From Rhodoferax sp. (lineage in GTDB: Bacteria; Pseudomonadota; Gammaproteobacteria; Burkholderiales; Burkholderiaceae_C), in the NCBI GenBank assembly GCA_020048895.1, contig JAIFLV010000088.1:20182-84181 (forward strand): DNA of 64,000 nucleotides, read 5' to 3'. The translations under genes were made by a program, and so were the position numbers. Shown in pieces: positions 47,545 through 63,577 of this stretch. The notes beneath the pieces are model-generated. The model did no database searches, was not told the origin of the DNA, and saw only the letters and a program-made list of their open reading frames with translations. Within the stretch, counting starts at the first letter, position 1; each line of letters opens with the position of its first letter.

Positions 47545-48027
47545 ATGGAACGCATCACCATTTCAATAGACAAAGAACTCGCCGCTGAATTTGACCGCCT
47601 GATCGCCACGCGCGGTTACAAGAACCGCTCGGAGGCCGTGCGTGATCTGGTTCGCTCTCATCTGGAAGCAGATCGGCAGGATGCGGGACCGGCGGGACAC
47701 TGCGTCGCCAATCTGTCCTATGTCTACAACCATCATGAGCGTGATTTGGCCGAGCGTCTCACCGCTTTGCAACATGACCAGCACGACCTTACGGTTGCAA
47801 CCTTGCACGCCCACCTGGACCACGAAAACTGCATGGAAAGCGTGATTTTGCGGGGCCCCACCGCTTCTGTACGCAACTTTTCAGATGCCCTGATTTCGGA
47901 ACGTGGTGTGCGCCATGGGCAACTGAATCTGGTGTCCGCGGAGATCGCGGGGAGCGGCCACCATCACCACAGCCACGGCGCGCATGGCAAGAACCACACC
48001 CACATTCACCTCAAACCCAAGACCTGA
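47545..48027 (+). CDS. nikR: Nickel-responsive regulator NikR with His-rich tail
   Basis: MERITISID RHH, NRSEAVRDL, YVYNHH, HAHLDHENCME, GVRHG. Confidence 0.93.
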   Translation: MERITISIDKELAAEFDRLIATRGYKNRSEAVRDLVRSHLEADRQDAGPAGHCVANLSYVYNHHERDLAERLTALQHDQHDLTVATLHAHLDHENCMESVILRGPTASVRNFSDALISERGVRHGQLNLVSAEIAGSGHHHHSHGAHGKNHTHIHLKPKT

Positions 48028-48045: not shown

Positions 48046-48780
48046 TCAAAGTCGTTGTCGACCCAGCGGTAGCTCCAAATGGCAGCGCTCCAAAAGGTCT
48101 TTGTCCGCAAAGATCGCGTCCGGCGAACCGTCCGCCTCAAGACGCCCGTGGTGCATGACAAGCACCCTTGAACAAACGTCCTCTACCAAGTCCAGATCAT
48201 GGGTTGCAATGATCTTGGTCAAATCCAATCCCATAAGCAAGTTGATCAGACGTCGACGAGCTGCCGGATCCAGGCAGTCACTGGGCTCGTCCATGACAAG
48301 TATGGAGGGGGACATTGCCAGGACGCCAGCGATGGCCACGGCACGCTTCTCTCCGCCAGATAGTCTGTAGGGCGGTCGCCCTGCCAAATGACTCGATCCC
48401 ACCGTCGCAAGAGCAGCCTCTACACGCGAGCGGACGTCCGCCAATGGCAGGCCCATGTTGGTCGGACCGAAAGCCACGTCGTCAAAGACCGTCGGCATGA
48501 ACAACTGGTCATCGGGGTCCTGGAAGACCAACCCCACGGTGCGCCGTACCTCAGCCAAGGTGCCAGCAGAAATCGCAGCATCATTCACCCGCACCTCGCC
48601 AGCGGTGGCTCTCAGCACACCGTTGAGATGCAGCAGGAGCGTCGATTTGCCAGCGCCGTTGCTGCCTATGATGCCGACCGATTCCCCTCGGCAAATGCCA
48701 AAGCTCACACCTTGCAAAGCCCTGCGTCCATCCGGGTAGGTGAAAGACAACTCTCGCGCTTGCAGTTGAAAGTGACTCAA
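48046..48780 (-). CDS. cbiO: ECF transporter ATPase (CbiO/NikO)
   Basis: GSNGAGKST, FQDPDDQLF, LSGGEK, DEP, ATHD. Confidence 0.92.
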   Translation of the reverse strand: MSHFQLQARELSFTYPDGRRALQGVSFGICRGESVGIIGSNGAGKSTLLLHLNGVLRATAGEVRVNDAAISAGTLAEVRRTVGLVFQDPDDQLFMPTVFDDVAFGPTNMGLPLADVRSRVEAALATVGSSHLAGRPPYRLSGGEKRAVAIAGVLAMSPSILVMDEPSDCLDPAARRRLINLLMGLDLTKIIATHDLDLVEDVCSRVLVMHHGRLEADGSPDAIFADKDLLERCHLELPLGRQRL

Positions 48781-49586
48781 GTGACCCGCCCCATCAAGGC
48801 TGCACCCAGCAGATGTGACAGATTAAAGTGGCGCGCGCCAATGCAGCCAGCCCAGCACGCAGCCAGAAACATCGAATCGGTTGTACGCCACAGCAACACC
48901 CGGTTAGAGCGCATTTCACCGCTGAATCCTCTGGATATCATGGCCTGATAGATGCGCTGGGAGCGGTCCATTGCCCGTAACAGCAGGTGGCCGAGCAAGG
49001 GCCCATAGACCGCCAGTGGCAATGACTTTGCGCCACCACGAAGCTCACGCGCCAGATTCATGCGGCCTACTTCACCTGCGAGCACCAAGGCATAGCGGTG
49101 CATGAACAATAGTTGGTTGGTAAGCACCTGCGGTACTCCCAGGCGGGCCAAGCCGACGCAGATCTGGTGAAACCCGGTTGTTGCCACCAGCACCAAGGCC
49201 GCACCCACTGTGAGCGCAAAGCGGACAAGGATGGAGGCAAACGATATCCAGCCCCCGGATACCGAGATCCCAAAGAGTTCAAGGACTATCTTGTGATCCA
49301 TCAAAGGGTTGAAGATGCCCACCATGATGGCAAACGGCGCCGCCGCCAAAATCTTTATCCAAATGGCCTTCAGTGGAACTTCGCCCAGAACTGCGATCAC
49401 CACTGGGAACAAGGCAAAAGGTAGCAAGGCAGCGACTGCATACCTGTCAAAGGACACCACGGTGATGATGAATCCCAGTGTGGCAAGAATCTTGGCCCGC
49501 GGGTCCAGTCCAGACAGGGCAGTTTGTCGCGTTGAAAAGGCGTCCAGTGACGCAAATTCATCGAGCGCAGATTGGATGCTGCTCAC
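48777..49586 (-). CDS. cbiQ: ECF transporter T component (CbiQ/NikQ)
   Basis: LDPRAKI, multiple TMs, RAMDRSQRIYQAMISRGF. Confidence 0.92.
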   Translation of the reverse strand: MSSIQSALDEFASLDAFSTRQTALSGLDPRAKILATLGFIITVVSFDRYAVAALLPFALFPVVIAVLGEVPLKAIWIKILAAAPFAIMVGIFNPLMDHKIVLELFGISVSGGWISFASILVRFALTVGAALVLVATTGFHQICVGLARLGVPQVLTNQLLFMHRYALVLAGEVGRMNLARELRGGAKSLPLAVYGPLLGHLLLRAMDRSQRIYQAMISRGFSGEMRSNRVLLWRTTDSMFLAACWAGCIGARHFNLSHLLGAALMGRVT

Positions 49587-49609
49587 AACGGCTTGTTATG
49601 AACCACGAA

Positions 49610-50689
49610 TCATCCAGGAGTACCTGCATCGACGTCGACCTTCCTGCGTCGACGCAATAGGTAGGCCACCAATGTGACGAGACTCAATGTTGCAAGCCCG
49701 CCAATAACACCTGCAAGCGAAGTCCCAGCATCGACCGCAGGCCATGCTTCACTTGTGGCTGATTTTTCTGGTTCTGGTGCTGTCTCCTTTACATCGGAGG
49801 AGAACTTGTAATCGGGAAATATTGTCAGACTCTTTTGAAACTCTTCCAGTCGCGTATGAACGGATTCTTTCGCCGCCAACTCAGCGCTTCCGGTGACACG
49901 TGCGATGCTCCACTCCAAACCATCGGGCTGCGATGAAGCGAACCAGGAGAATACCCCTGCCGTGAACAGTGCCAACACTCCCAGGCCAGCAATCAACTTT
50001 GCAGGGAACGTGGAAGACAAAGACGGCCCGCCCGCCGCTCTTTCATCAACAAACAGGTCAGGCCGGGCTTCTCGCACGAAGTGGATAAGTGCTGCCGTTG
50101 CGAGGCCCTCTACCAGCCCGATGGCAAGGTGTATCGGTTGCATGAGGAGCAAAAAGGTGCTCAGCGGCAAGCTACTGATTCCCGAGAATTGGGTCTGTGT
50201 CACCACACCCAGGGAACCCAGTTGCAGGCTGACGACCGTTGCAAGGACGGTGATGGCCGCCATGCGACGCTTCGACGCCAGCACCCCGGCGCGCTTGAGC
50301 AAGGGGCGATAGATCAGCGGCAGCCCGATGAAGCAGGGGAGCACACCCAGATTGAAGATATTGGCACCCAGAGCAAGCAGTCCACCATCGGCAAAGAACA
50401 ATGCCTGCACCGTCAGCACCGATGCAATGACAACAAAGGCCGCGTAGGGCCCCAACAATATGGATAACAGCAACCCGCCACCAATATGCCCGCTCGATCC
50501 CGTACCGGGAATCGTGAAGTTAATCATCATTGCGGCAAAGACGAATGCACCCAGCACGCCCATCAGTGGGACAAGGTAGTCCCGCGGGTCGCTGCGGACC
50601 TTTCTGGAAGAGATCGCCAATGCGGTACCGGTAGCTGTCCAAAAGGCGATTCCAACGGCAGGAGAGAGCAGGGCATCGGCCATGTGCAT
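49610..50689 (-). CDS. cbiM: ECF Ni/Co S component fused to a PDGLE (NikN-like) domain
   Basis: MHMADAL metal-binding N-terminus, GSSGHIGG, QALFFADGG, SQPDGLEWS. Confidence 0.9.
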   Translation of the reverse strand: MHMADALLSPAVGIAFWTATGTALAISSRKVRSDPRDYLVPLMGVLGAFVFAAMMINFTIPGTGSSGHIGGGLLLSILLGPYAAFVVIASVLTVQALFFADGGLLALGANIFNLGVLPCFIGLPLIYRPLLKRAGVLASKRRMAAITVLATVVSLQLGSLGVVTQTQFSGISSLPLSTFLLLMQPIHLAIGLVEGLATAALIHFVREARPDLFVDERAAGGPSLSSTFPAKLIAGLGVLALFTAGVFSWFASSQPDGLEWSIARVTGSAELAAKESVHTRLEEFQKSLTIFPDYKFSSDVKETAPEPEKSATSEAWPAVDAGTSLAGVIGGLATLSLVTLVAYLLRRRRKVDVDAGTPG

Positions 50690-50711
50690 TTTGGATTCCT
50701 TCCGGCAAATC

Positions 50712-50738
50712 GTATGAAGATTAAAAATATTGTATTAC
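50712..50738. promoter_or_regulatory. Candidate NikR operator
   Basis: GTATGA-N15(AT-rich)-TATTAC; the E. coli site is GTATGA-N16-TCATAC, so spacing is one base short. Confidence 0.45.
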
Positions 50739-50804
50739 TATTTGGTGGCCGAAAATTCCAGTCCTTGTCTGCAGGCCTCCTGCGAGGCTGACATAATGCG
50801 CACG

Positions 50805-51164
50805 ATGCAAACCCTGCGACGATTCACCATGCTCACGCGCCTCGTGCTGGCGTGGTTTGTGCTGTCGCTAGGCGTTGCTGTGGCCGCACCTGTCATCGCA
50901 CCACAACATATTCTTTTTGTTTGTACTGGCACGGGAGCCATGAAGGTGCTGACCCAGGTTGAGGATGGCAGCACTACGGAACAAGTTCATTCCAGGATGG
51001 ACTGCCCGCTGTGCGCGACAGTGTCGGCGCCACCACCGCAACCAGGCGTAGCGGTGCCACACCTTTGTGCTCTGTCATATGCCCTCCATGGCGTTCCTGT
51101 AGCTTTCATTGCAGCGCGTACTGCTTCGCCCATGCCGGCGCGCGGTCCACCCGCATTGTCCTGA
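50805..51164 (+). CDS. DUF2946 family (CruR-like) protein 1
   Basis: TM LVLAWFVLSLGVAVAAP, VCT, CPLC, C-terminal ARGPP. Confidence 0.88.
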   Translation: MQTLRRFTMLTRLVLAWFVLSLGVAVAAPVIAPQHILFVCTGTGAMKVLTQVEDGSTTEQVHSRMDCPLCATVSAPPPQPGVAVPHLCALSYALHGVPVAFIAARTASPMPARGPPALS

Positions 51165-51293
51165 ATCCGCTACGTATTTCGTAGCGTTCTGCGCCCATTC
51201 CATAGAGGAGTGGGCAGCATTTCGTTGATCGATCCGGCAGGTAGGTGTTCAACGCGAGTGCATTTCTCTGTCCACTTCTACGAACTTTCATCC

Positions 51294-51776
51294 ATGAAAT
51301 ACATTGCAAAACTCACATCCGTTATTGTTGTAGCCACCTTCTCCACGGTGGCCCTGGCCCAATCCGTAGACGTCAAAGACGCCTGGGCGCGCTCCACCGT
51401 GCAGGGGCAAAAGGCCACCGGTGCTTTCATGAAGCTCACCGCCAAGGAGGGCGCCAAGCTGGTGGGCGGCTCATCGCCCGCGGCAGGCGTGGTCGAAGTT
51501 CATGAAATGAAAATGGAAGGCGACGTCATGAAGATGCGTGCCGTCCCCGGCGGGCTCGATCTACCTGCAGGCAAGGCGGTGGAACTCAAGCCCGGCGGCT
51601 ACCACGTGATGCTGATGGACCTGAAAGCGCCGCTCATGAAAGACTCCACCGTTCCTCTAACCCTGGTGTTCAAGGACGCCAAAGGTGTGGAGAGCAAGGT
51701 CGAATTGAAGGTGCCTGTATCCACCGTGGCGCCAGGCCCAGCGATGCAGATGGACCACAGCCAGCACAAGATGTAA
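51294..51776 (+). CDS. Copper chaperone PCu(A)C
   Basis: Signal peptide, DAWAR, EVHEMKMEGDVMKM, LKPGGYHVML; Met/His C-terminal tail. Confidence 0.95.
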   Translation: MKYIAKLTSVIVVATFSTVALAQSVDVKDAWARSTVQGQKATGAFMKLTAKEGAKLVGGSSPAAGVVEVHEMKMEGDVMKMRAVPGGLDLPAGKAVELKPGGYHVMLMDLKAPLMKDSTVPLTLVFKDAKGVESKVELKVPVSTVAPGPAMQMDHSQHKM

Positions 51777-51944: not shown

Positions 51945-52355
51945 ATGCGCGGTTCCGTGATGCTGTCGTTGCCGTACCGACGTTGGTCGGTGTGGCTGGC
52001 TTTGTGCGTCGCTGTGTTCACGGCAATGGCGCCCACGCTCGCGCGAGCGTTTGCTGCCGCACAGAGCGGCTCGGGCCAGGGCTTTGAGATCTGTACGGCG
52101 CAGGGCTCGCGCTGGGTGGCCGTCAGTAGTGCGAACGCTTTGGTCGATTCCTCATCCGGGCAGGACTCCACGCCTTCACTTTCGCATTGCCCGTTTTGCC
52201 TGCTTAGCGCAGACCGCTGCGCCCCGCCTCCTTCAGCGGTTACCTACCGCTTCGTGTCCCAAGACGCACAACCGAATGCCAGCACAGGGCAGACTTTTGT
52301 CTACCTTGCGCAACCGTACACGCGCGCATCGCCCCGTGGACCTCCGATTTCCTGA
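51945..52355 (+). CDS. DUF2946 family (CruR-like) protein 2
   Basis: TM VWLALCVAVFTAMAP, EICTAQG, HCPFC, C-terminal PRGPP. Confidence 0.88.
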   Translation: MRGSVMLSLPYRRWSVWLALCVAVFTAMAPTLARAFAAAQSGSGQGFEICTAQGSRWVAVSSANALVDSSSGQDSTPSLSHCPFCLLSADRCAPPPSAVTYRFVSQDAQPNASTGQTFVYLAQPYTRASPRGPPIS

Positions 52356-52481
52356 ACTCCTAAGTTTGTAGCACTCTGCGCTTCCTACCCGGAGGCTGGA
52401 GGCCTTTTTGACCGCAAGGAAGTTGCCGTGTGCAGCAGCCCTTGCATCGCATTTTCAAATCTTCAAGTTCAGGATCATCCA

Positions 52482-53426
52482 ATGAAACAAGCATCCCTAC
52501 CTATCATCGCCTCCTTCAGCCTCGTTGCGGCAGCCGTTCTCACCGCATGCGGTGGCGGCGGCAGCGACGGCCCCCTGCCCGACAAGGTGGTGGCCATCAA
52601 CTTTGCAGCCGTCAATGGCAGCACACCCGTCAAGTGCGGAACCCAGCTCACCGGCATGGGCAGCACGGGAGTCGCAGCCGATGTAAAAGACCTGCGCTTC
52701 TACATCACCAACCTTGCCCTGGTGAATGACAAGGGCGTGGCCGTGCCGGTCAAGCTCGACGCCAGCAAGTGGCAACTGACGCAAGGCACCGAGACCGTCT
52801 CCCTGATTGATCTGGAAGACGCCACGGGTGCGTGCGCAACGGCTGCCAATACGGCTGAGACGAACGCCGTCATCACCGGCACTGTTCCGGGGGGCACTTA
52901 CGTCGGCCTGAAGGCCACCGTGGGCGTGCCCGAGGCCATGAACCACAGTGTTGCGGCCGGTGGTGTGCCACCGCTGGACAGCACCGCTTTGCTGTGGTCC
53001 TGGCAGACGGGGCGCAAGTTCACCAAGATCGAGATCAATCCGGTAGGCGGTTTGGTCAAACCCGATGGCACCAGCATTGCGACCTACAACCTGCACATCG
53101 GCTCCACCGGCTGCACACCCAAGCTGGACGCTGCCGGCGTTGCCATCCCCAATACGGGCACTTGCACCAATCTCAACATGGCCGATTTCAGCCTGGCTGC
53201 CTTCGATATGGCGACGCAGAAAGTGGCACTTGATCTGGGACAGTTGTTCAAGACCAGCAACCTGACCAAGGAAAATGGCGGGTCCCCGGGCTGCATGTCC
53301 GGCGCTACCGACCCGGAGTGCGCGGTCATCTTTACTGAACTGCAGGTCAGTTATGGCAGCGGTTCGGACGGTAAGCCGATCAACGGTGGCGCGGCGCAGA
53401 AGATCTTCAAGGCTGTTGCAAAGTGA
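52482..53426 (+). CDS. mbnP: MbnP family copper-binding lipoprotein
   Basis: Lipobox VLTAC, DLRFYITN, MNH, WSW motif (LLWSWQTG), H-IGSTGC, GCMS, six mature Cys; directly upstream of an MbnH-type gene. Confidence 0.88.
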   Translation: MKQASLPIIASFSLVAAAVLTACGGGGSDGPLPDKVVAINFAAVNGSTPVKCGTQLTGMGSTGVAADVKDLRFYITNLALVNDKGVAVPVKLDASKWQLTQGTETVSLIDLEDATGACATAANTAETNAVITGTVPGGTYVGLKATVGVPEAMNHSVAAGGVPPLDSTALLWSWQTGRKFTKIEINPVGGLVKPDGTSIATYNLHIGSTGCTPKLDAAGVAIPNTGTCTNLNMADFSLAAFDMATQKVALDLGQLFKTSNLTKENGGSPGCMSGATDPECAVIFTELQVSYGSGSDGKPINGGAAQKIFKAVAK

Positions 53427-54622
53427 TGCGAGCGCACCGTCAGCTGCCAACCAGACTGTCGGTGTCCGGCGCCCCGTCGTGGGCGCTGGTGACGGCCTTG
53501 GTCGGCGCTGTCGGATTGGCGGGGTGTGGCGGCGGGGCAGACAGCGCCGCCGCAACGGCAAGCGCTTGGGCATGGGCGCTACCACCGGGTTTTTCTGTGC
53601 CCGCCGTGCCAGCTGACAACCCTATGTCCACGGCCAAGGTGGACCTCGGGCGGTTCCTGTTCTATGACAAGCGCCTTTCGGGCAACGGCACCCTGGCCTG
53701 CTCCGGCTGTCACCTGCAGGAAAAGGCGTTCACCGATGGCTTGGCCGTGGCCAAAGGCTCCACAGGCGAGTTCACGCCCCGCAATTCGCAGTCTTTGGGT
53801 AACGTTGCTTACAGTCCGACCCTCACCTGGGCCAACCCGGGCCTGGTGTTGCTGGAGCGCCAGATGGAGGTGCCGCTGTTTGGCGAAAACGTGGTCGAGA
53901 TGGGAATCAACGACGGCAACAAGGCGGCCGTGTTGCAGCGCCTGGCAGATACCAGTCTCTACCCACCCAGGTTCGCGCAGGCATTTCCTGGTGAAGTCAA
54001 TCCCGTTTCGTGGGGCAATGCCATCAGGGCCATCGCCGCATTCCAGCGCTCGCTCATCAGTGGCAACAGCACGTACGACCAGGCTGTGGCCGGCAAAGCG
54101 GTTTTGAGCAGCGCAGAACAGCGCGGCCGGGATCTCTTCTTCGGCTCCAAGGCCGGTTGCTCGCAGTGCCACCACGGATTCAATTTCAACGACCAGGTGG
54201 TGGACGCTAATTCCCAGGCGGTTACGCGAGTGTTTCACAACATCGGCCTGTACAACGTCGGTGGTACCGGTGCCTATCCGGAGCCTAACCGTGGCGTGAT
54301 GGAGCTCAGTGGCCTGTTCAAGGACATGGGCGCTTTTCGGGCACCGAGCTTGCGCAACGTGGAAGTCACGGCTCCGTACATGCACGATGGCAGCATCGCT
54401 ACGCTGGAAGAAGTGATGGATGTGATTGCAGAAAGCGGGCGCAACATTACCAGTGGCGTCTATGCGGGCGATGGTCGCCGCAATCCGTACAAGAGTCCGC
54501 TGGTAACACCGCTCGCACTCACGGACCAGGACAAGTCGGATCTGATTGCGTTCCTGAAGACGCTGACAGACCTCGAGTTCCTGTCCAACCCCCAGCAGTC
54601 TGACCCGTTCAAGGTTTTGTGA
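53426..54622 (+). CDS. mbnH: MbnH family di-heme cytochrome c peroxidase/MauG-like enzyme
   Basis: LGRFLFYDKRLS, CSGCH and CSQCH heme motifs, FRAPSLRNV, APYMHDGS; TGATG overlap with mbnP. Confidence 0.92.
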   Translation: MRAHRQLPTRLSVSGAPSWALVTALVGAVGLAGCGGGADSAAATASAWAWALPPGFSVPAVPADNPMSTAKVDLGRFLFYDKRLSGNGTLACSGCHLQEKAFTDGLAVAKGSTGEFTPRNSQSLGNVAYSPTLTWANPGLVLLERQMEVPLFGENVVEMGINDGNKAAVLQRLADTSLYPPRFAQAFPGEVNPVSWGNAIRAIAAFQRSLISGNSTYDQAVAGKAVLSSAEQRGRDLFFGSKAGCSQCHHGFNFNDQVVDANSQAVTRVFHNIGLYNVGGTGAYPEPNRGVMELSGLFKDMGAFRAPSLRNVEVTAPYMHDGSIATLEEVMDVIAESGRNITSGVYAGDGRRNPYKSPLVTPLALTDQDKSDLIAFLKTLTDLEFLSNPQQSDPFKVL

Positions 54623-54725: not shown

Positions 54726-55373
54726 ATGCAGAACCCAGTGAAAGAACCCATCCCCAATAGTGCGACACGTGTGCTTGCATCGCGCGAAAGCTTGCGGCCG
54801 GGGGAGCTAAAGCAACTTTGGCGACTGGAGGTGGGCGCGGTCCGTATCGACAGCGCGCCGCCGGGTGCGCCGACTCGCTTTGTCCGATTGGCCTTGCCCG
54901 GTGATGTGATTGGCGTGGAGCAGTGGGCGGGTACCGACGAAAGTCTGACCGTGCGCGCCCTCGTACCGACTTGCCTCACACCTTTGGACTCAAAAGGGTA
55001 CCAGGTGATGCAGATTCTGATGGAGTCGGTGGTGACCACCCACCAGCGTTGTGGTGAAGTGGTGAGCCTGCGTACTGGCACGGTGCCGCAACGGGTTAAA
55101 CGCCTTCTGTTGATGCTTGCCCCTGCGGGCCCGGATGTGGCGGGGCAGACCACAGAATGTCCCTTGCCGAACTTGAACGACATGTCCGATGTGCTGGACG
55201 CTGCGATAGAGACGGTGTCGCGTGTGCTGGCCAGCATGCGGCGCAACGACTACCTGCAGGAGCGCAAGCCACAGCGGGCACGCTTTAGCAGTCAGGTGCT
55301 GCGCGAGATTGAAATGGTGGTCGGGATGTCGAATTCGGCCACATCCCAACGTGTGGTCCGTTCGCTGGGATAG
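54726..55373 (+). CDS. Crp/Fnr-family regulator-like protein
   Basis: LWRLEVGAVRI, LALPGDVIG beta-roll; QRVKRLLL; IETVSRVL HTH. Confidence 0.8.
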   Translation: MQNPVKEPIPNSATRVLASRESLRPGELKQLWRLEVGAVRIDSAPPGAPTRFVRLALPGDVIGVEQWAGTDESLTVRALVPTCLTPLDSKGYQVMQILMESVVTTHQRCGEVVSLRTGTVPQRVKRLLLMLAPAGPDVAGQTTECPLPNLNDMSDVLDAAIETVSRVLASMRRNDYLQERKPQRARFSSQVLREIEMVVGMSNSATSQRVVRSLG

Positions 55374-55389
55374 CTTGCGATTGGCGAGG

Positions 55390-56805
55390 TTACGGTCTGG
55401 AAATTATCTGCGATACCGGGTAGCCGCCCATCGTGCCGCGTCCCCGGTACCCGGTCATGCAGGTATCCCCCATCATGCCACCGGCAGCGCAGTCACCATA
55501 GGCCAGCAGGTTGATTTGCGCTGCGCTTAGCGGTGCTATAGGGTCCGAAAGTCTGACGTAAATGGTCATGAAACTGTTGCCAATGCCACCAGGCGCACCG
55601 GGGTGCTTGGCATTCGGCCAGCCGTAGTACAGCCCCTCCGAATTAGCTGCAAAGCCGCCTTCGGCAAAGGTGTTGATGGTGTTGAGGGCGAAGGTCGTTA
55701 CGAGCAGGCCACCTTGGCCGTCGCTGATCGCGGAGAGCTGGTGTGTCAGTGGCACCGTGGTCATGGGCGGCCCCGTCATCGATTCGGTGAGCGTTCCCTT
55801 CAAGTCAGAAACGCTGCCGGCGGTGGAGTTGACCACGAAGCTGCCGTTGAAAATAGTGTCATTGGGTTGGGTGTCGGGTTCAAAGAAAGTGGCTGCCACG
55901 TTGTACTGGGTGATCACCTCCGCCGGTGTGGACGGGTCGCCCTGGTCAACGCTGTTCGACGCCCGCACCGCAAACGCGTATCCGGTGCACGTTACAGGGC
56001 AAGGTACGGCAATTGGTGAGCTGCTGCCACTGGCTGTGATGCCAACCGGGTTGGACACCACGGTGTAGCCGGTGATGGGAGCGCCACCGCTGTTGGCGGG
56101 CCCGACAAAGCTGACCAACACGCTGTTTGCCAAATCCCCGGCAGTCGCCGCCACCCCGGTCGGTGCATCAGGCGCCGCGAGCGCAACCACCGGCACCGTG
56201 ACTGTGATGCTCTGCATCACTTGTGTTGCAGCCAGGTAGCTGGCATCACCGGGTTGGTTGGCGGTGATGGTACAGAGGCCTGCTGCAATGGCCGTGACAG
56301 CCCCCGTGTTTCCGACCACCGAACATACCTGCGGTGTGCTGGTGCCAAAGTGCACCGGCAAGCCGGAACTCGCAGTGGCTTTGACACTGGCGGTGCCATA
56401 CAGAGTCAATTCTGGGGGAGCAGCAAACAGAATCGTCTGCTTTGGGTCGACCAGTACAACCAGACTTTGAGTGGCTTGTGCCGCCGGAGCAAAGTCATCG
56501 TTGCCTTCCTGGTCGGCCGCCAGCATGCAGGTTCCTGCGATGAGTGCTGTCACTTTGCCGGTGTCACGCTGGACGCTGCAAACCGTGCCGGTCAGACTGG
56601 AGTAGGTCACGGCGAGGCCGGCGCTGGAGGTGGCGGCAACCGTGGCGGTCCCGTTCAGGGGCAGAACCGGTGTCGCGCCGAACTGTAGCGTCTGTGCCTG
56701 GGCTTTGATGGCGGGTCCGTCACCGCCACCACAGCCCGTTATCAGTACGGACAGCAAACTACCAGCCACAAAGGCAGATCGAACTCGAACAAGATGGGTC
56801 ATCAT
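55390..56805 (-). CDS. Lipoprotein: two Ig-like repeats, FN3, Met/Cys-rich C-terminal domain
   Basis: Lipobox LITGC; two repeats QTxxF...SGL.V.....VCSV...G.C...A.Q.G; APDAPTGVAA/GGAPITGYTV FN3; tip DCAAGGMMGDTCMTG...GTMGGYP. Confidence 0.85.
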   Translation of the reverse strand: MMTHLVRVRSAFVAGSLLSVLITGCGGGDGPAIKAQAQTLQFGATPVLPLNGTATVAATSSAGLAVTYSSLTGTVCSVQRDTGKVTALIAGTCMLAADQEGNDDFAPAAQATQSLVVLVDPKQTILFAAPPELTLYGTASVKATASSGLPVHFGTSTPQVCSVVGNTGAVTAIAAGLCTITANQPGDASYLAATQVMQSITVTVPVVALAAPDAPTGVAATAGDLANSVLVSFVGPANSGGAPITGYTVVSNPVGITASGSSSPIAVPCPVTCTGYAFAVRASNSVDQGDPSTPAEVITQYNVAATFFEPDTQPNDTIFNGSFVVNSTAGSVSDLKGTLTESMTGPPMTTVPLTHQLSAISDGQGGLLVTTFALNTINTFAEGGFAANSEGLYYGWPNAKHPGAPGGIGNSFMTIYVRLSDPIAPLSAAQINLLAYGDCAAGGMMGDTCMTGYRGRGTMGGYPVSQIISRP

Positions 56806-56814
56806 GCGAACGTC

Positions 56815-59049
56815 CTAAAAGCGCATGCTTAAAGCGAGGTGGATCGAGCGCCCCATGCCCGGCACGGTCGTGCCCCAGGGAATGCCGGTGCTGGTCATCG
56901 AGGCGCCTTGGCCAAGGTAGGCGCCACCCAGCGGCGGTGTGTAGTTGCGGTTGAGCAGGTTCTCGACACCTATATCCAGCCGTGTTTGTTGCCACTGGAC
57001 GCTGCTGCGCCAGTGGACGAGGCCATAACCTGCCGTGGGTATCTCGTTGCGAACGCGTGAGACGTCGGTCTTGGCTGCTACGAGTTGCACTTCGGCGGTG
57101 TTGGTCCAGTCGCCCCAGGTTTGCATGACTGCCAACTTGGCATTGAGCGGCATGATGTTGTAAAGATGGTCACCTGTGCTGCGATTCTCACCGCGGACAT
57201 AGCTCAGCGTGCCGGTTGCCTTGAAACTGCCAGTATCCGCCGTGGCACCCAGGTGCGCCTGGCCCGACAGATCAAAACCGACCAGGCGTGCCATGTGATT
57301 CACATACTGCAGATTGACGAAACCGCTGCTGGCCGTGAGGTTGGCGGTGCCGCCGCATTGCCCGAAATTGCAGCGCTGTGCATCGATGAAATCCTGCACC
57401 TCTGTGATATGGCCTTTCGCCTGCACGCCCCACACGGTCTGGTCGGCATCGTGCCAGTCAGCGCTGACGCTCAGCGTGTGTGCGACTTCCGGTGTCAGGT
57501 CAATGTTGCCGATGTAGCCGTTGCCGTCGCCCACAAAATTGTTCATGAGCGATGCCATGGGCTGTGTGGACCAGGCGTAGCGCTGGTAGAGATTCGGCGA
57601 GTGGGACTTGCGCGCAAAGCCCGCGTCAAAGCTGGCACTGGCTTGTGGCACGTAACGCATCAAGGCAGTGAAGTCCAGATTGTGGTCCGTGCGAACTCGA
57701 TCCAGAGCGTTGAATGCCGCTGCATCACTGGCCCAGATGGCCTGCGCGTTGTAACCCTGGACTGGCCCGGTGTTGGTGCTGACGGTCTCATGCCGGAGTC
57801 CGAGCTGCGTGCGCCATTGGGTGTCCCACAGCGCCTCCCATTCCGCAAACAGTCCGGCCCGGTCGCGCGTGCCGTAGTCCATATTCCAGAATGTTCTAGG
57901 CCCCATGACACCGCCCGCCTGCGGCCACCAGTCGTACAGCGAATAGTTCAGCGCTTCAGCACCAACCCGAATGGTTGTCCGGTCAGACCAGGCAATGTCG
58001 GCCTGGGCCAGTGCCCCTCGGGTCTTGGCCTTGGTGTTCATCGGCATGCCCAGCGTGCCGTAGGAGAACCTGTCTGGCCCCATGTTCATAAAGTGCTCAG
58101 TGTCTTGCCCGTAAGTGCGCGCCTGTAGGCCGCCCCAGGGGAACTTGCCGGTGTAGCGCAGGTTGGCCTGCGTACTGTCATTGCCCGTCATGTCCATGCG
58201 CTGGTTGGGGAAGCCTTCAAACGGAAGGCGTTGGCTGCCCACGTTGAGCTGCAGCAAGTGCCCATCGTTGTGGACCGCCAACGCGATATCCTGGTTCTTT
58301 GCCGTGTAGGCGCTGGAGCCCACCTCGTTACCTGCAAGCCATGCGCCGCCTGATGTACCAGGCCCAGCGGCCTTGAAATCACCACCAGCCAGGTAATTGG
58401 ACGTCTGTGCGCTGGAAGATCGGTAGCCTATATGAATGTTCTGGCTGGCGTAGGTCGCACCCAGGTTGAAACCCCAGGCCCGACCATTGCTGCGGTAAAA
58501 GGTGCCCGCCTCGCCCTGGGTCAGCCTCGCGTCGGCTCTATCTGCGAACTCGGGGGGCGCCGATTGCACCTGGATCGTGCCGCCAATGCTGTCCCCACCT
58601 ACGCTCACGGGCGTGATGCCGGCAAAGACGGAAATGCTACCGACCCGGCTGGGGTCGATGTACGAAAGCGGCGAGTTCATGTGGTTGGGGCAAGCCGCCA
58701 TCAGGTCCATGCCATCGACCTGAATGCGCAGACGGTCATCGGCCAGGCCATGAATCACCGGCAGACTGGAGACGCCTCCGGCACCATACAGGCTCACGCC
58801 GGGCACGTCCTGCAATAGTTGGGCCGTGTCACTGGTAGCGGCGCGCCGGGAGATCAACGCGTCCTTGCCCACCAGAGTGCTTCCGAGGGGTAGGGAGGGC
58901 AATCGGGTGCCTGTGATGACCACTTCGCCCAGGTGCGATGGCGACTGGGCATGCACCCCGCTGGAAGCCACTGCCACAGCCCATGCAAGACTGTTTAGCA
59001 TCGGAGTGGTCAACGTGGCCAAGCGTCGCGAAATGCACGTGGTTTTCAT
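56815..59049 (-). CDS. TonB-dependent receptor, OprC-like copper motif
   Basis: TonB box EVVITG, plug ACPNHM (CxxxM), GVENLLNRNY, C-terminal F; Met-rich loops. Confidence 0.93.
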   Translation of the reverse strand: MKTTCISRRLATLTTPMLNSLAWAVAVASSGVHAQSPSHLGEVVITGTRLPSLPLGSTLVGKDALISRRAATSDTAQLLQDVPGVSLYGAGGVSSLPVIHGLADDRLRIQVDGMDLMAACPNHMNSPLSYIDPSRVGSISVFAGITPVSVGGDSIGGTIQVQSAPPEFADRADARLTQGEAGTFYRSNGRAWGFNLGATYASQNIHIGYRSSSAQTSNYLAGGDFKAAGPGTSGGAWLAGNEVGSSAYTAKNQDIALAVHNDGHLLQLNVGSQRLPFEGFPNQRMDMTGNDSTQANLRYTGKFPWGGLQARTYGQDTEHFMNMGPDRFSYGTLGMPMNTKAKTRGALAQADIAWSDRTTIRVGAEALNYSLYDWWPQAGGVMGPRTFWNMDYGTRDRAGLFAEWEALWDTQWRTQLGLRHETVSTNTGPVQGYNAQAIWASDAAAFNALDRVRTDHNLDFTALMRYVPQASASFDAGFARKSHSPNLYQRYAWSTQPMASLMNNFVGDGNGYIGNIDLTPEVAHTLSVSADWHDADQTVWGVQAKGHITEVQDFIDAQRCNFGQCGGTANLTASSGFVNLQYVNHMARLVGFDLSGQAHLGATADTGSFKATGTLSYVRGENRSTGDHLYNIMPLNAKLAVMQTWGDWTNTAEVQLVAAKTDVSRVRNEIPTAGYGLVHWRSSVQWQQTRLDIGVENLLNRNYTPPLGGAYLGQGASMTSTGIPWGTTVPGMGRSIHLALSMRF

Positions 59050-59267: not shown

Positions 59268-61205
59268 TTATCGCTCACACGTGAGGTTTCGATCATGGGC
59301 CATCTTTCGGTACAAAGTCTGGCGGCTGACTCCCAGAATGCGCGCGGCATGGGAGACATTTCCCTTGGCGGACTCCAGCGCCTGTTGCATGGCGGTCTTG
59401 GCAAGGTCTTCAAGATTGGAGGAAGTTCGCAACGTAGGCACTGCCACCGTCGGCGGCGTGTGCGCCACCAGGTCTTCCACAACGTCATCCGCGAGGTGAC
59501 TCCAACCAATGCAATCTTCATGCGGATCGAGCATGGCGCTGGCGGTTCGCAAAACGCTGGCGAGTTGCCGCAAGTTACCCGGCCATCCGTGCTTCTCCAT
59601 TTTTTCCAGTACTTCCGTACCAAGGCGAACATTGCGATCAGGGTTCAGTCCTGCCAGCAATCTGTGAGTGAGCGCCTGAAAATCTGTTCGCTCGCGCAAT
59701 GGGGGGAGTTGAATGGTGAGACCGTTGATTCGGTAGTACAGGTCGTTGCGAAACCGGCCCTTGTCCGCCTCTTCGCGTAGTTTGGAATGGGTAGCACAGA
59801 CAAGAGCGAAGTCCACTTCCATCGAGCGCCCGCCACCGAGTGGAGTCACACAGCGCTCCTGCAGCACCCGCAGCAACCGGGTTTGCATGTTCAGTGGCAT
59901 GTCCCCGATCTCATCCAGAAACAGCGTGCCGCCGTTTGCCTCACGCAGGCGACCCAGGCTTCCTTCCTTTTTTGCCCCGGTAAACGCCCCGGGTGCATAG
60001 CCAAACAGCTCGGACTCGATCAGACTTTCGGGAATGGCTGCGCAGTTGATGGCAACAAACGGACCTGATCGGCGCGCGCTGGTGTCATGCATGGCACGGG
60101 CGAAGTATTCCTTTCCCACACCCGACTCTCCCTGAATGAGTACCGGTATCGGCTTGTTCAGCACGCGGCGCGCCTTGTCGGCCGCGTTGCGCCACCGCAC
60201 ATCGCCTGTATCCAGGCAGGAAAGCGCGTCGACGGGTGAACGATCGTGCTTTGCGGCTTGATGGATTCCATTTGTCGACCGCGCCTCTGGGGTATGTACA
60301 ACGGCAAACAGTGTGTGGGCGTTACGCGTTCGGATTTGCATCGGTAAACCGGGGTTGCGCCTGCAACGCGACAGCAACTCGTCCATCCGAAGGTCCACAG
60401 CGCGCTCGAGCGGCGTAACGCCTAAATTGGAACGATTGAGCTGTAGGCAGGTCATTGCAGCCCGGTTGGCACCGACAATCCAACCATCTTCAGAGACTGA
60501 AACGATGCCTTCGGCCACGGTACCAATGCCTTCAGGCTGTGCGTGCAGATGAATTCGGATTCCACGTGAGCCTTGAGCGACCATCAAGCGGTTCTCAATC
60601 ATCCGTGCAGCCGTGCTGACCAAGCCTAACGTATGGGGATGCCCGTTGTGCTGGTCTCCCGAGATGTCCAGGATGCCCATCAGCCCCCCCTTGGCAGACA
60701 TGATGGGTGAAGCGGCACAGGTAAGAAAGCTGTTGCGTTCCAAGAAGTGCTCCTGGCCATGGACTTCCACCCCCGTGCCTTCGGCGAGCGCGGTGCCGAT
60801 CGCATTGGTCCCGCGTTGCGACTCGTGCCACGATGCTCCTGACGCTAAAGCAACCCGCTGCGCTTTATCAAGAAAGACAGCGTCACCCAGGGTGTGCATC
60901 AAGGTGCCCCGGTTGTCCGCAAGGACCACGACATTCTGGTTATGGCGCACCTGTTCAAACAAGTACTCCATCACCGGCCGGGAGTGGGCCAGCAGTTCGT
61001 GGTTTTGCATCAAGATCTGGCGCAATTCATTTCCGCTGCTGTGATCTGGCATCTGCAAGCGACCATCTGGTAGCAGGCCCGCGGCCATGCTGCGACTCCA
61101 GGAGCGTGCGATGCGCCCATCGAGCCCACTTTCGGGTACAGATCCAAATTCCATGAGATGCTCGCGAGCATGATGGACGGCCAAAGCGTGTTGGGGGGTG
61201 TGCAC
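59268..61205 (-). CDS. acoR: Sigma54-dependent enhancer-binding protein, AcoR-like (GAF-AAA+-Fis HTH)
   Basis: RGTNAIGTAL GAF, GESGVGKE, ESELFGYAPGAFTGA, LFLDEIGD, WPGNLRQL, HTH; GTG start after AGGAG. Confidence 0.9.
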   Translation of the reverse strand: MHTPQHALAVHHAREHLMEFGSVPESGLDGRIARSWSRSMAAGLLPDGRLQMPDHSSGNELRQILMQNHELLAHSRPVMEYLFEQVRHNQNVVVLADNRGTLMHTLGDAVFLDKAQRVALASGASWHESQRGTNAIGTALAEGTGVEVHGQEHFLERNSFLTCAASPIMSAKGGLMGILDISGDQHNGHPHTLGLVSTAARMIENRLMVAQGSRGIRIHLHAQPEGIGTVAEGIVSVSEDGWIVGANRAAMTCLQLNRSNLGVTPLERAVDLRMDELLSRCRRNPGLPMQIRTRNAHTLFAVVHTPEARSTNGIHQAAKHDRSPVDALSCLDTGDVRWRNAADKARRVLNKPIPVLIQGESGVGKEYFARAMHDTSARRSGPFVAINCAAIPESLIESELFGYAPGAFTGAKKEGSLGRLREANGGTLFLDEIGDMPLNMQTRLLRVLQERCVTPLGGGRSMEVDFALVCATHSKLREEADKGRFRNDLYYRINGLTIQLPPLRERTDFQALTHRLLAGLNPDRNVRLGTEVLEKMEKHGWPGNLRQLASVLRTASAMLDPHEDCIGWSHLADDVVEDLVAHTPPTVAVPTLRTSSNLEDLAKTAMQQALESAKGNVSHAARILGVSRQTLYRKMAHDRNLTCER

Positions 61206-61320
61206 TGTGTCTCCTGGACAGACTTTTGTCTGTTCTCTATTGTCAAAACCGGCTTGATCGTACTCAAGGCCATCAACCCTGACGATATGTAATGCCATGC
61301 ATAGAGACCCGGTAGGTGAT

Positions 61321-61339
61321 GTGTCACTTTTTGTGACAC
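61321..61339. promoter_or_regulatory. Candidate AcoR upstream activating sequence
   Basis: Perfect dyad GTGTCAC-TTTTT-GTGACAC followed by another TGTCAC half-site, about 100 bp upstream of the -24 box. Confidence 0.65.
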
Positions 61340-61435
61340 CTGTCACGATTTACACCACCGAACGGTCATTCGGGTTAACCCGAAAGCCGAAAAAAATTGT
61401 GTTTGAAATCAACGGCCTAGAAAAGTTGAACGGAT

Positions 61436-61450
61436 TGGCATGGGAATTGA
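61436..61450 (+). promoter_or_regulatory. Sigma54 -24/-12 promoter candidate
   Basis: TGGCATG-GGAA-TTGA (consensus TGGCACG-N4-TTGC); correct spacing, -12 GA instead of GC. Confidence 0.55.
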
Positions 61451-61509
61451 GAAGTAGAAGTACCCGCAAGGGAAATTCTTGAACCCATTTACAACTTCCG
61501 GAGACTTTC

Positions 61510-63030
<1,521 letters not shown>

Positions 63031-63098
63031 TCGAACCCCCTGAGCCGCGCCCGCGTTCTGGGATGAGGCATTGCGCTCCGGCGCAGCGCCCAATACCG

Positions 63099-63176
63099 AA
63101 CGCGACGGCCGGATAGGGCTGGCACCGATTTGTGGTACCCCACCATGAGGTGCCTGCCCTATCCGGTTGTCGCGTT
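63099..63176 (+). repeat. 28-bp-stem hairpin between aldB and DUF779
   Basis: AACGCGACGGCCGGATAGGGCTGGCACC ... GGTGCCTGCCCTATCCGGTTGTCGCGTT. Confidence 0.8.
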
Positions 63177-63214
63177 GCGAACGCCAACAAAAGTTCTTTG
63201 AACAGGAAACAAGC

Positions 63215-63577
63215 ATGGTTGACAAAGTTGTAGCCACCCCCGCAGCACTGGAACTGGTGGCGTTTCTCAAGACCAAGCATGGACCTGATCTGATGTTTCA
63301 CCAGTCAGGGGGATGTTGCGACAACAGCGCTGCAAACTGCTTTCTGCCAGGAGAAATCACCATGGGGGCGGGTGATGTTTACCTGGGGGATATAGGTGGC
63401 AGCCCGTTCTACATTGGCAAGGCGCAGTATGAATACTGGAAGCACACCCAACTCATCATTGACGTGATTGAGGGCACGGGCGGCACGTTCTCACTCGAAG
63501 GTCCAGAGGGAAAAGCGTTTCATACACGCTCCAGAGTTTTCACTACTGAAGAAATGAACGAGCTATTGGGCAAATGA
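63215..63577 (+). CDS. DUF779 family protein
   Basis: FHQSGGCCD, QYEYWKHTQLIIDV, FSLEGPEG; usual partner of AldB. Confidence 0.92.
   Translation: MVDKVVATPAALELVAFLKTKHGPDLMFHQSGGCCDNSAANCFLPGEITMGAGDVYLGDIGGSPFYIGKAQYEYWKHTQLIIDVIEGTGGTFSLEGPEGKAFHTRSRVFTTEEMNELLGK

Follow-up and report, generated by a model that had tools for sequence, protein, structure and literature searches.

The window analysed here, a stretch of 64,000 nucleotides (nt) of Rhodoferax sp. DNA (contig JAIFLV010000088.1), encodes on its reverse strand a TonB-dependent transporter (TBDT) and, directly behind it, a lipoprotein of 471 amino acids (aa). The lipoprotein consists of a stalk of immunoglobulin-like (Ig-like) and fibronectin type III (FN3) domains that carries a C-terminal domain of 174 residues, called the tip below. 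By sequence and structure model, the tip is an undescribed family without a recognisable fold. The two genes, the gap between them and the parts of the lipoprotein are as follows.

56815..59049, reverse strand: TBDT gene, 744 aa, ending in TAG
56806..56814, reverse strand: intergenic spacer of 9 nt, sequence TTTTAGGACGTTCGCATGATG
55390..56805, reverse strand: stalk-tip lipoprotein gene, 471 aa plus stop, from the list of open reading frames (ORFs)
56731..56805, reverse strand: signal peptide and lipobox, aa 1-25, LITG followed by C25, read from the sequence
56452..56703, reverse strand: Ig-like repeat 1, aa 35-118, Cys76/Cys93, from repeat alignment, a weak Big_2 match and model
56191..56451, reverse strand: Ig-like repeat 2, aa 119-205, Cys161/Cys178, from repeat alignment, model and Foldseek
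55915..56172, reverse strand: FN3 domain, aa 212-297, from an fn3 score below cut-off, titin and fibronectin matches and Foldseek
55393..55914, reverse strand: tip domain, aa 298-471, all-beta model, no family match
55417..55500, reverse strand: Met/Cys motif Y-x-D-C-x3-G-M-M-x3-C-M-T-G-...-G-T-M-x-G-x-P, aa 436-463, from the conservation table

The junction of the two genes bears out the original prediction, made from the DNA letters without database searches, that the lipoprotein gene begins 9 nt past the receptor stop. Nine nucleotides, GACGTTCGC, separate the TAG of the TBDT from the ATGATG start of the lipoprotein. Because the gap is this short, a ribosome-binding AGGA overlaps the TBDT stop codon and no terminator-like site or hairpin was found between the TBDT and the tip gene, co-transcription of the pair can soundly be inferred. 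No promoter-like site was found in the 218-nt region upstream of the TBDT.

The lipid anchor, two disulfide-type Ig repeats and FN3 domain that had been proposed for the protein are all recovered by the lipobox, the repeat alignment, the Cys pairs, the model and the FN3 matches. The N-terminus, MMTHLVRVRSAFVAGSLLSVLITG followed by C, has a basic n-region and then a hydrophobic h-region, and its lipobox agrees with the pattern [LVI][ASTVI][GAS]C. In an alignment of 92 full-length stalk-tip orthologs (A3), Cys25 is invariant, as are the pairs C76/C93 and C161/C178, one in each Ig repeat. Aligned with each other, the two repeats (residues ~35-118 and 119-205) share 47% identity (E 1e-21). Pfam places the stalk below threshold: Big_2 (PF02368) scores 18 bits on the window protein against a cut-off of 22.8, and fn3 (PF00041) scores 19.7 bits on residues 213-297 (E 1e-3) against a cut-off of 25 bits. 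Titin FN3 chains among the PDB sequences match the FN3 region at an E of 5e-9, fibronectin FN3 matches it too, and many orthologs carry precomputed stalk matches to PF00041, PF22359, PF26182 or PF02368. The full-length AlphaFold model, with a predicted local distance difference test score (pLDDT) of 84.7, has four beta domains behind a disordered tether; residues 1-28 are disordered and residues 35-297 form beta-sandwiches at a pLDDT of 85-96. Searched with Foldseek, this model retrieves Ig-FN3 arrays, among them contactin Ig-Fn, titin and S-layer proteins (E 4e-10 to 1e-5), and also cadherins. The stalk is therefore modelled as a beta-sandwich array of the Ig/FN3 kind, though it misses the Pfam thresholds. 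At least 485 full-length relatives were found at E<=1e-20, and their source names are only hypothetical or fibronectin type III/BIG2 domain-containing protein; in the wider family, the one further name is PEP-CTERM sorting domain-containing protein. Close orthologs differ in length through the stalk (471, 593, 665 and 823 aa). The FN3 domain of stalk-tip orthologs also holds an invariant CxxxC (PCPVTC; C269/C273; 55987-56001), which is missing from the FN3 domain of short FN3-tip paralogues and may form a disulfide or offer another thiol site.

The tip ends in YGDCAAGGMMGDTCMTGYRGRGTMGGYP, and the protein closes on ...VSQIISRP. Its AlphaFold model, built from 114 homologs, reaches a pLDDT of 96.9 and a predicted template modelling score (pTM) of 0.92. 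The model is all-beta, with about 10 strands and a long, ordered but non-regular segment at tip residues 76-114. The original prediction had called the domain uncharacterised, and it keeps that standing in searches by Pfam, NCBIfam, PDB sequence and Foldseek. Pfam-A, NCBIfam r20 and the PDB sequences gave no match to the tip; the 114-sequence profile matched among PDB chains only FN3, from the flanking domain; and 49 short homologs searched against Pfam and NCBIfam matched only PEP-CTERM tails, confined to their last 30-50 residues. Foldseek of the tip model against 350,542 PDB chains gave nothing at E<=1e-3 (best E 0.07, TM-score at most 0.37), and its weak top matches, all small beta-barrels (porin-like BACUNI_01323, PmSLP, avidin and OmpX), were set aside as not usable. 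An exhaustive search of 1.84 billion representatives with a hidden Markov model of the tip found 220 clusters (50% identity) at E<=1e-3 and, with the stricter limit of E<=1e-10, 171. The Pfam-checked members gave no bridge to another family, and a full-text search of the literature found no description of the domain. Three other identities were considered and rejected. The tip has no conserved catalytic His/Ser/Asp/Glu pattern of a protease or glycosidase, it has neither CxxCH nor a conserved His of a haem ligand domain, and for a partner of a methanobactin receptor the methanobactin (Mbn) biosynthesis genes are missing.

What the family does conserve is methionine. The original prediction pointed to some 170 residues with 2 Cys and 4 Met in about 22 residues, and the tip of 174 aa has precisely these between C439 and M459. 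Across the 114 homologs, which are 50-95% identical overall, tip positions Met46, 51, 147, 148, 153 and 162 are Met in 96-100%. These six correspond to M343, M348, M444, M445, M450 and M459 of the full-length protein, so that M343 and M348, further upstream, belong to the same conserved set as the motif. Four further tip positions are Met in 37-75% of members. The window protein has 7 Met in its 174-aa tip versus 2 in its 272-aa stalk, and the median tip has 9 Met and 1 His per 182 aa, with no His conserved among the 114 homologs. At only 30-40% identity, Met148 and Met162 are still invariant and Met46 and Met153 nearly so. On these alignments, the conserved Met/Cys positions are hardly the product of chance.

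The two cysteines call for a different explanation from the methionines. Tip Cys142 and Cys152 (C439 and C449 of the full-length protein) are 100% conserved among the 114 homologs. About eight more divergent representatives have replaced both Cys together yet keep the methionines (example YADFAPGGMMGPVGMTG), and the other three domains of the lipoprotein have exactly one invariant Cys pair each. Because the Cys are lost as a pair while the Met are kept, and because every other domain has one such pair, Cys439-Cys449 is probably a structural disulfide that staples the Met-bearing hairpin, not a pair of Cu(I) ligands. The methionines are therefore left as the candidate ligands, and the thioethers of the tip are read as its functional core. 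The proposal that Met and Cys together bind Cu(I) thus survives in its methionine half, while its cysteine half gives way to a likely disulfide. The branch of the family without the Cys pair includes L084, L085 and L086 (proteins P0264, P0355 and P0305), which lie in Planctomycete-like contexts with N_methyl and SBP_bac_10 neighbours. Cys-less tips are fused to PASTA or PATR repeats. A CzcB/RND efflux system lies near such a member at one locus and a NikR_C fragment at another; as a group, the contexts of P0264, P0355 and P0305 are uninformative about the metal.

The partner receptor has the Pfam Plug and TonB_dep_Rec_b-barrel domains, and the closest solved structure to it is the copper receptor OprC (6fok; E 2e-22, profile E 5e-30). 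Its plug motif ACPNHM aligns with ACPNRM of OprC, that is, with Cys143/Met147. Among 62 tip-adjacent TBDT homologs, C120 is kept in 61 and M124 in all. About 200 residues downstream of the plug CxxxM, the barrel motif H319xM321 is likewise invariant (62/62), and so are extra methionines at positions 285, 287, 323, 335, 337, 382, 498 and 502. From motif and invariance we infer that H319xM321 is the equivalent of OprC His323/Met325. OprC binds Cu(I) as well as Cu(II) at its CxxxM-HxM site, and a surface methionine track funnels Cu(I)/Ag(I) (PMC8610252). Because the window TBDT scores below the cut-off of the OprC/NosA equivalog TIGR01778, by sequence it is a member of an OprC-like clade of copper receptors, separate from the OprC orthologs.

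Scanning one genome per GTDB species yielded 161 tip loci, of which 80 were fetched for context, 45 of them at least 15 kb long. Loci were counted by tblastn; a GC3-filtered gene caller assigns some stalk-tip genes wrongly to antisense clusters (c3, c4 and c6). The carriers of tip and receptor, at least 161 species-level genomes, include iron oxidisers (Gallionellaceae, Sideroxydans), Geobacterales, Desulfuromonadales and Anaeromyxobacter as well as Rhodocyclaceae, Thiobacillus and Methylococcaceae lineages. The closest genome by tip (L001) is a metagenome-assembled genome (MAG) of an uncultured betaproteobacterium with 97% tip identity, followed by Rhodoferax-like MAGs at ~71-73%. Window DNA is present in microbial-mat and freshwater/lake metagenomes, whereas a look for the locus among RNA-seq runs gave no match.

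A close homolog of the window TBDT adjoins the tip gene in 71 of the 80 loci, and the expectation that tip homologs would lie beside TBDTs with an invariant CxxxM holds in these. Five of the other nine are cut by a contig end and L037 is ambiguous, so that only L019, L023 and L074 clearly lack a TBDT. The pairing extends over Beta-, Delta- and Gammaproteobacteria, Nitrospirota, Acidobacteria and Binatia. Recurrent layouts are TBDT>stalk-tip (as in the window), tip>TBDT, tip>TBDT>stalk-tip and TBDT>stalk-tip>FN3-tip, and at least two tip domains are encoded in 38 of the 80 loci. Where two tip paralogues surround one TBDT (L021, L035, L040, L041, L047, L049, L050, L052, L058, L062, L063, L067, L077 and L082), a short FN3- or PEP-CTERM-anchored tip goes with a long stalk-tip. 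Two tips also occur within single proteins (P0240, P0241, P0242 and P0255), while the window has one tip only. Such pairs hint at a relay or a hetero-oligomer. The contig of L083 (8125-10522) comes from a long-read metagenome; its TBDT and stalk-tip genes are broken into several ORFs, with a stalk/tip overlap of 4 nt. These splits are probably assembly frameshifts and not gene fission. L081 has a genuinely separate 280-aa gene that precedes the tip.

The second kind of neighbour is a set of copper genes. A copper-handling family is found at 35 of the 80 loci, and 23 of the 45 that are 15 kb or longer have one, which agrees with the original expectation that tip homologs would be linked to copper genes. 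By locus, the families are MbnH (20), MbnP (17), PCuAC (12), DUF2946 (11), NosL (9) and Sco1 (4). As a rough estimate, not computed, a random 20-kb proteobacterial window holds such a copper gene a few per cent of the time. In the window itself, the following genes lie beyond the 3' end of the tip gene.

50730-51164, forward strand: DUF2946/CruR-like protein, by Pfam/NCBIfam
51210-51776, forward strand: PCuAC, by Pfam/NCBIfam
51945-52355, forward strand: second DUF2946/CruR-like protein, by Pfam/NCBIfam
52428-53426, forward strand: MbnP, 332 aa, by Pfam/NCBIfam
53423-54622, forward strand: MbnH, by Pfam/NCBIfam
54726..55373, forward strand: Crp-family regulator, convergent with the tip gene, by HTH_Crp_2

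In close relatives, the same genes stand on one strand in the order DUF2946>PCuAC>(DUF2946)>MbnP>MbnH>(Crp)>TBDT>stalk-tip, and copper genes run co-directionally upstream of the TBDT/stalk-tip pair in, for example, L006-L012, L016 and L066. The Crp-family regulator occurs in 7 of the 80 loci and lies between MbnH and the TBDT in relatives. Compared with the co-directional MbnP>MbnH>Crp>TBDT>stalk-tip of L006-L011 and L066, the TBDT/stalk-tip pair is inverted in the window (region 54726-59049), and the window has this inversion in common with the 97%-identical MAG locus L001. DUF2946 is CruR, a leader peptide that senses copper and, in Bordetella, switches off operons for copper uptake (PMC9426467). 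It lies directly upstream of tip-TBDT genes, on the same strand and with its RAPP-type C-terminus intact, at L053, L021 and L020. Both DUF2946 ORFs of the window are small and exported and have a CxxC (CPLC and CPFC) followed, 42-45 residues on, by a C-terminal RGPP arrest-like motif. The first precedes PCuAC and the second precedes MbnP/MbnH, which by analogy with Bordetella CruR suggests two copper-repressed, leader-controlled operons in the window (PMC9426467).

Several further observations concern these neighbourhoods. A long form of MbnP, 550-600 aa with an N-terminal extension of ~300 residues, occurs at L007, L008, L017 and L083. A PEP-CTERM protein family of ~280-330 aa, which belongs to no Pfam or NCBIfam family, stands beside tip-TBDT genes at L081 (9162-10004), L034, L068, L072 and L048, in deltaproteobacterial and Thiobacillus-like loci; its mature N-terminus is Met-rich (…SMPPSWMPMTM…), and it may be a third component. 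On the other side of the window pair, upstream of the TBDT, a sigma-54 activator with a GAF domain (AcoR/PrdR-like, 59268-61346, reverse strand) is divergent from an aldehyde dehydrogenase (61510-63030) and DUF779 (63167-63577). The unit at 59268-63577 is of a common type for alcohol/aldehyde catabolism and has no relation to the copper genes.

The account of these findings that we consider somewhat better than an even bet is that the tip, tethered outside the cell, traps Cu(I) and so feeds an OprC-like importer at its Met-rich mouth. The lipoprotein would be anchored by lipid at Cys25, and its two Ig-like domains and its FN3 domain would form a rod that holds the 174-residue beta tip off the membrane. 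There the tip would display the cluster of Met343, 348, 444, 445, 450 and 459; its Met-bearing hairpin is probably stapled by a Cys439-Cys449 disulfide. Cu(I) is a soft, thioether-loving ion, and the Met cluster would bind it at the cell surface. The tip would then pass Cu(I) to the Met-rich extracellular face of the TBDT and from there to the CxxxM-HxM site. After TonB-driven import, periplasmic PCuAC and MbnP/MbnH in the window, and Sco1 and NosL in relatives, would take the copper for cuproenzyme assembly. A bolder form of the proposal makes the tip the founder of a class of protein 'cuprophores', with a new fold, that bind naked Cu(I), are tethered or released, and deliver to an OprC-like TBDT; we regard this as not quite an even chance. 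The idea of a copper-scavenging surface domain, put forward in the original prediction, fares well with regard to its family, TBDT, anchor and copper genes, and loses its Cys ligands.

Several results weigh against a surface Cu(I) trap. At 45 of the 80 loci no copper gene is within reach, and NikR/CbiM, which belong with nickel and cobalt, recur at ~8 loci and are present in the window. In the full-length model, confidence is low over the Met loop (pLDDT 51-64). The Cys-less Planctomycete-like members (P0264, P0355 and P0305) have no adjacent TBDT. On the side of the receptor, the TBDT scores 117.2 bits on TIGR01778 against a cut-off of 472.45, and HMMER aligned only the plug and the C-terminal barrel with OprC, leaving the HxM unaligned with His323/Met325. 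Finally, no gene for the known surface-lipoprotein export factor Slam was seen in the window or among recurrent neighbours, although the loci had no DUF560-specific scan.

This last point bears on where the tip resides, and so do the anchors of the family. Of 328 family proteins that contain the core motif, 158 combine a lipobox with a C-terminal tip, ~46 have a PEP-CTERM/VPLPA-CTERM tail after the tip and 42 have a signal peptide only. The PEP-CTERM-anchored versions that had been anticipated do exist: the PEP-CTERM tip forms pass TIGR02595, and many homologs pass TIGR02595/PF07589. The window protein lacks such a tail (PEP motif, hydrophobic helix and basic cluster). Other fusions are with autotransporter PATR repeats, with PASTA domains and with stalks that give proteins of 1396 aa, and across the family the tip is N- or C-terminal to the anchor. 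Anchors of either polarity together with very long spacers suggest a module displayed outside the cell, and by this context the lipoprotein form would be surface-exposed as well.

The alternative that survives best, which we nonetheless think unlikely, is a periplasmic acceptor, that is, a lipoprotein of the inner leaflet of the outer membrane that takes over Cu(I) on its exit from the TBDT and delivers it to PCuAC, Sco1, NosL or MbnP. A proteobacterial lipoprotein with Gly at +2 goes by default to the periplasmic face of the outer membrane, the recurrent neighbours as scanned, with no DUF560-specific search, include no Slam-type factor, the neighbouring genes encode periplasmic copper chaperones, and the known Met-rich Cu(I) carriers (CusF, CopC and PCuAC) are periplasmic. 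However, homologous tips are joined to PEP-CTERM signals, autotransporter PATR repeats or PASTA domains, and stalks that range from one FN3 to many Big-like repeats, in proteins of 823-1396 aa, would outspan the periplasm. The placement of the tip on either side of the anchor likewise fits a displayed module and not a fixed docking geometry.

Extracellular capture as such leaves room for another cargo. The tip might take up a copper complex or mineral, such as a chalkophore, a small-molecule Cu chelate or the Cu(I)-sulfide/thiol species of anoxic sediments, and present it to the receptor; we consider this improbable. MbnP/MbnH were first seen in methanobactin operons beside MbnT receptors (PMC3621798), the copper TBDT CrtA takes up chelated and not free copper (PMC12914433), and the carriers of the tip are mostly taxa of low-oxygen sediment, groundwater and mats. 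However, biosynthesis genes for methanobactin or other metallophores are not recurrent in the 80 loci, the TBDT retains the OprC site for naked copper in place of MbnT or CrtA features, and the conserved residues of the tip are thioethers, typical of direct Cu(I) ligation.

About equally improbable in our judgement is a role without metal, in which the tip is a lid, a docking or an adhesion module and its methionines provide a pliable hydrophobic contact with the receptor loops or act as sacrificial antioxidants. SusD-type partners do serve as lids of TBDTs, and Met-rich surfaces make protein-protein contacts in other systems. A tip with no conserved His and with Cys that are probably oxidised would suit such a role, and the two tip paralogues in 38 of the 80 loci could mean structural oligomers. 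Against this, identity can fall to 30% without any change at the Met positions, while the residues around them drift. The TBDT, for its part, has an invariant set of methionines and a copper site. Nor does a dedicated lid agree with soluble and PEP-CTERM forms, or with Planctomycete-like members that have no TBDT.

The weakest alternative is a NikR-controlled route of Ni/Co uptake that feeds the adjacent CbiMQO importer; NikR (47545-48027, forward strand) and CbiO-CbiQ-CbiM/PDGLE (48046-50689, reverse strand) do lie beside the copper cluster of the window, NikR occurs in 5 and CbiM in 4 of the 80 loci, and one locus has the order NikR>DUF2946>tip>TBDT, but we think it very improbable, given that Ni(II)/Co(II) prefer His, Cys and carboxylate over thioethers while the tip has a median of 1 His, that the TBDT bears OprC copper motifs, that copper genes are ~4x more frequent as neighbours than Ni/Co genes, and that a search for E. 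coli-type NikR operators found fewer sites than expected by chance, with none of them close to the operon. The importer at 48046-50689 is of the energy-coupling factor (ECF) type and divergent from the copper cluster, with an AT-rich spacer (~50700-50745) that contains GTATGA...GTATTAC. The ~8 of 80 loci with NikR/CbiM near tip-TBDT pairs come from unrelated phyla.

If the tip is indeed a surface trap for Cu(I), the tip-receptor pair would supply a missing first step of copper acquisition. To our knowledge, only three types of copper receptor have been characterised, none of them with a known capture partner, and we know of no accessory capture protein described for OprC. The passage of copper across the Gram-negative outer membrane is still poorly understood (PMC8610252, PMC12914433). 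The pair would be the first equivalent for ionic copper of TbpB, HasA or ZepA, with a wide distribution among bacteria of low-oxygen freshwater and sediment, and the tip would define a new metal-binding fold. It would also help to explain how nitrous oxide (N2O) reductase and haem-copper oxidases obtain their copper in settings in which it is scarce and reduced. The tip is small, very confidently modelled and present in cultured strains (Zoogloea oryzae NBRC 102407, Parasulfuritortus cantonensis LSR1 and Pelomonas sp. P7), which gives easy experimental access.

Comparison with known systems places the proposal more precisely. OprC/NosA and the window TBDT are alike in their Plug and 22-strand barrel and in their CxxxM, which aligns residue for residue. 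The clade of the window TBDT also has an invariant HxM, a candidate equivalent of the OprC one, and extra methionines that resemble the methionine track. They differ in the operon partner, which for OprC is the PepSY/FoxB-like inner-membrane protein PA3789 (PMC8610252) and in the window is a stalked lipoprotein. TbpB, LbpB, HpuA and PmSLP, surface lipoproteins that depend on Slam, share with the window an arrangement in which the lipoprotein gene adjoins the TBDT gene, and they capture their substrate outside the cell, as is proposed for the tip. However, the substrate of TbpB-type proteins is a host protein and that of the tip would be a metal ion, and the tip stands on an Ig/FN3 stalk. It also does not form the 8-strand barrel (plus handle) of that group; the PmSLP barrel matches it in Foldseek at an E of 0.098, a probability of 0.35 and a TM-score of 0.29. 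BtuG/SusD, surface lipoproteins of Bacteroidota, and the hemophore HasA are likewise high-affinity capture proteins placed ahead of a TBDT. They have beta-propeller, TPR-like helical and alpha/beta hemophore folds, come from other phyla and bind organic ligands, and no SusD- or BtuG-type fold is among the Foldseek matches of the tip.

Closer to the proposed function is ZepA, a PEP-CTERM exoprotein that binds zinc and supplies it to Anabaena (PMC10957091). Likened by its published description, ZepA resembles what is proposed for the tip family as an extracellular, direct metal binder, with a PEP-CTERM anchor and TBDT neighbours in sediment, mat and biofilm bacteria (PMC10957091). Its Zn(II) ligands are a His cluster (H-x2-9-H-F/Y-H), whereas the tip is almost without His and has Met instead, and the window protein is lipid-anchored where ZepA is PEP-CTERM-anchored. 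In its PEP-CTERM forms, the tip looks like the counterpart of ZepA for copper. Small periplasmic Met-rich carriers such as CusF, CopC/PcoC, PCuAC, CopK and NosL are beta-rich, bind Cu(I) via Met thioethers, as is predicted for the tip, and work by protein hand-off. None of them matches the tip in Pfam, NCBIfam or Foldseek, and the tip differs from them in its larger fold, its 40-residue non-regular segment, its tether and its probably extracellular location. MopE/CorA and MbnP, kynurenine-dependent copper proteins of the surface or the periplasm, also serve copper acquisition and are regulated by copper scarcity, and MbnP/MbnH stand beside tip-TBDT genes in 17-20 of the 80 loci. They have no sequence relation to the tip, and their MauG-like partner and their His and kynurenine ligands have no counterpart in it. 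The logic of capture is thus familiar from known systems; what appears new is the tip domain, its class of ligand for a TBDT partner and its pairing with an OprC-like clade of receptors.

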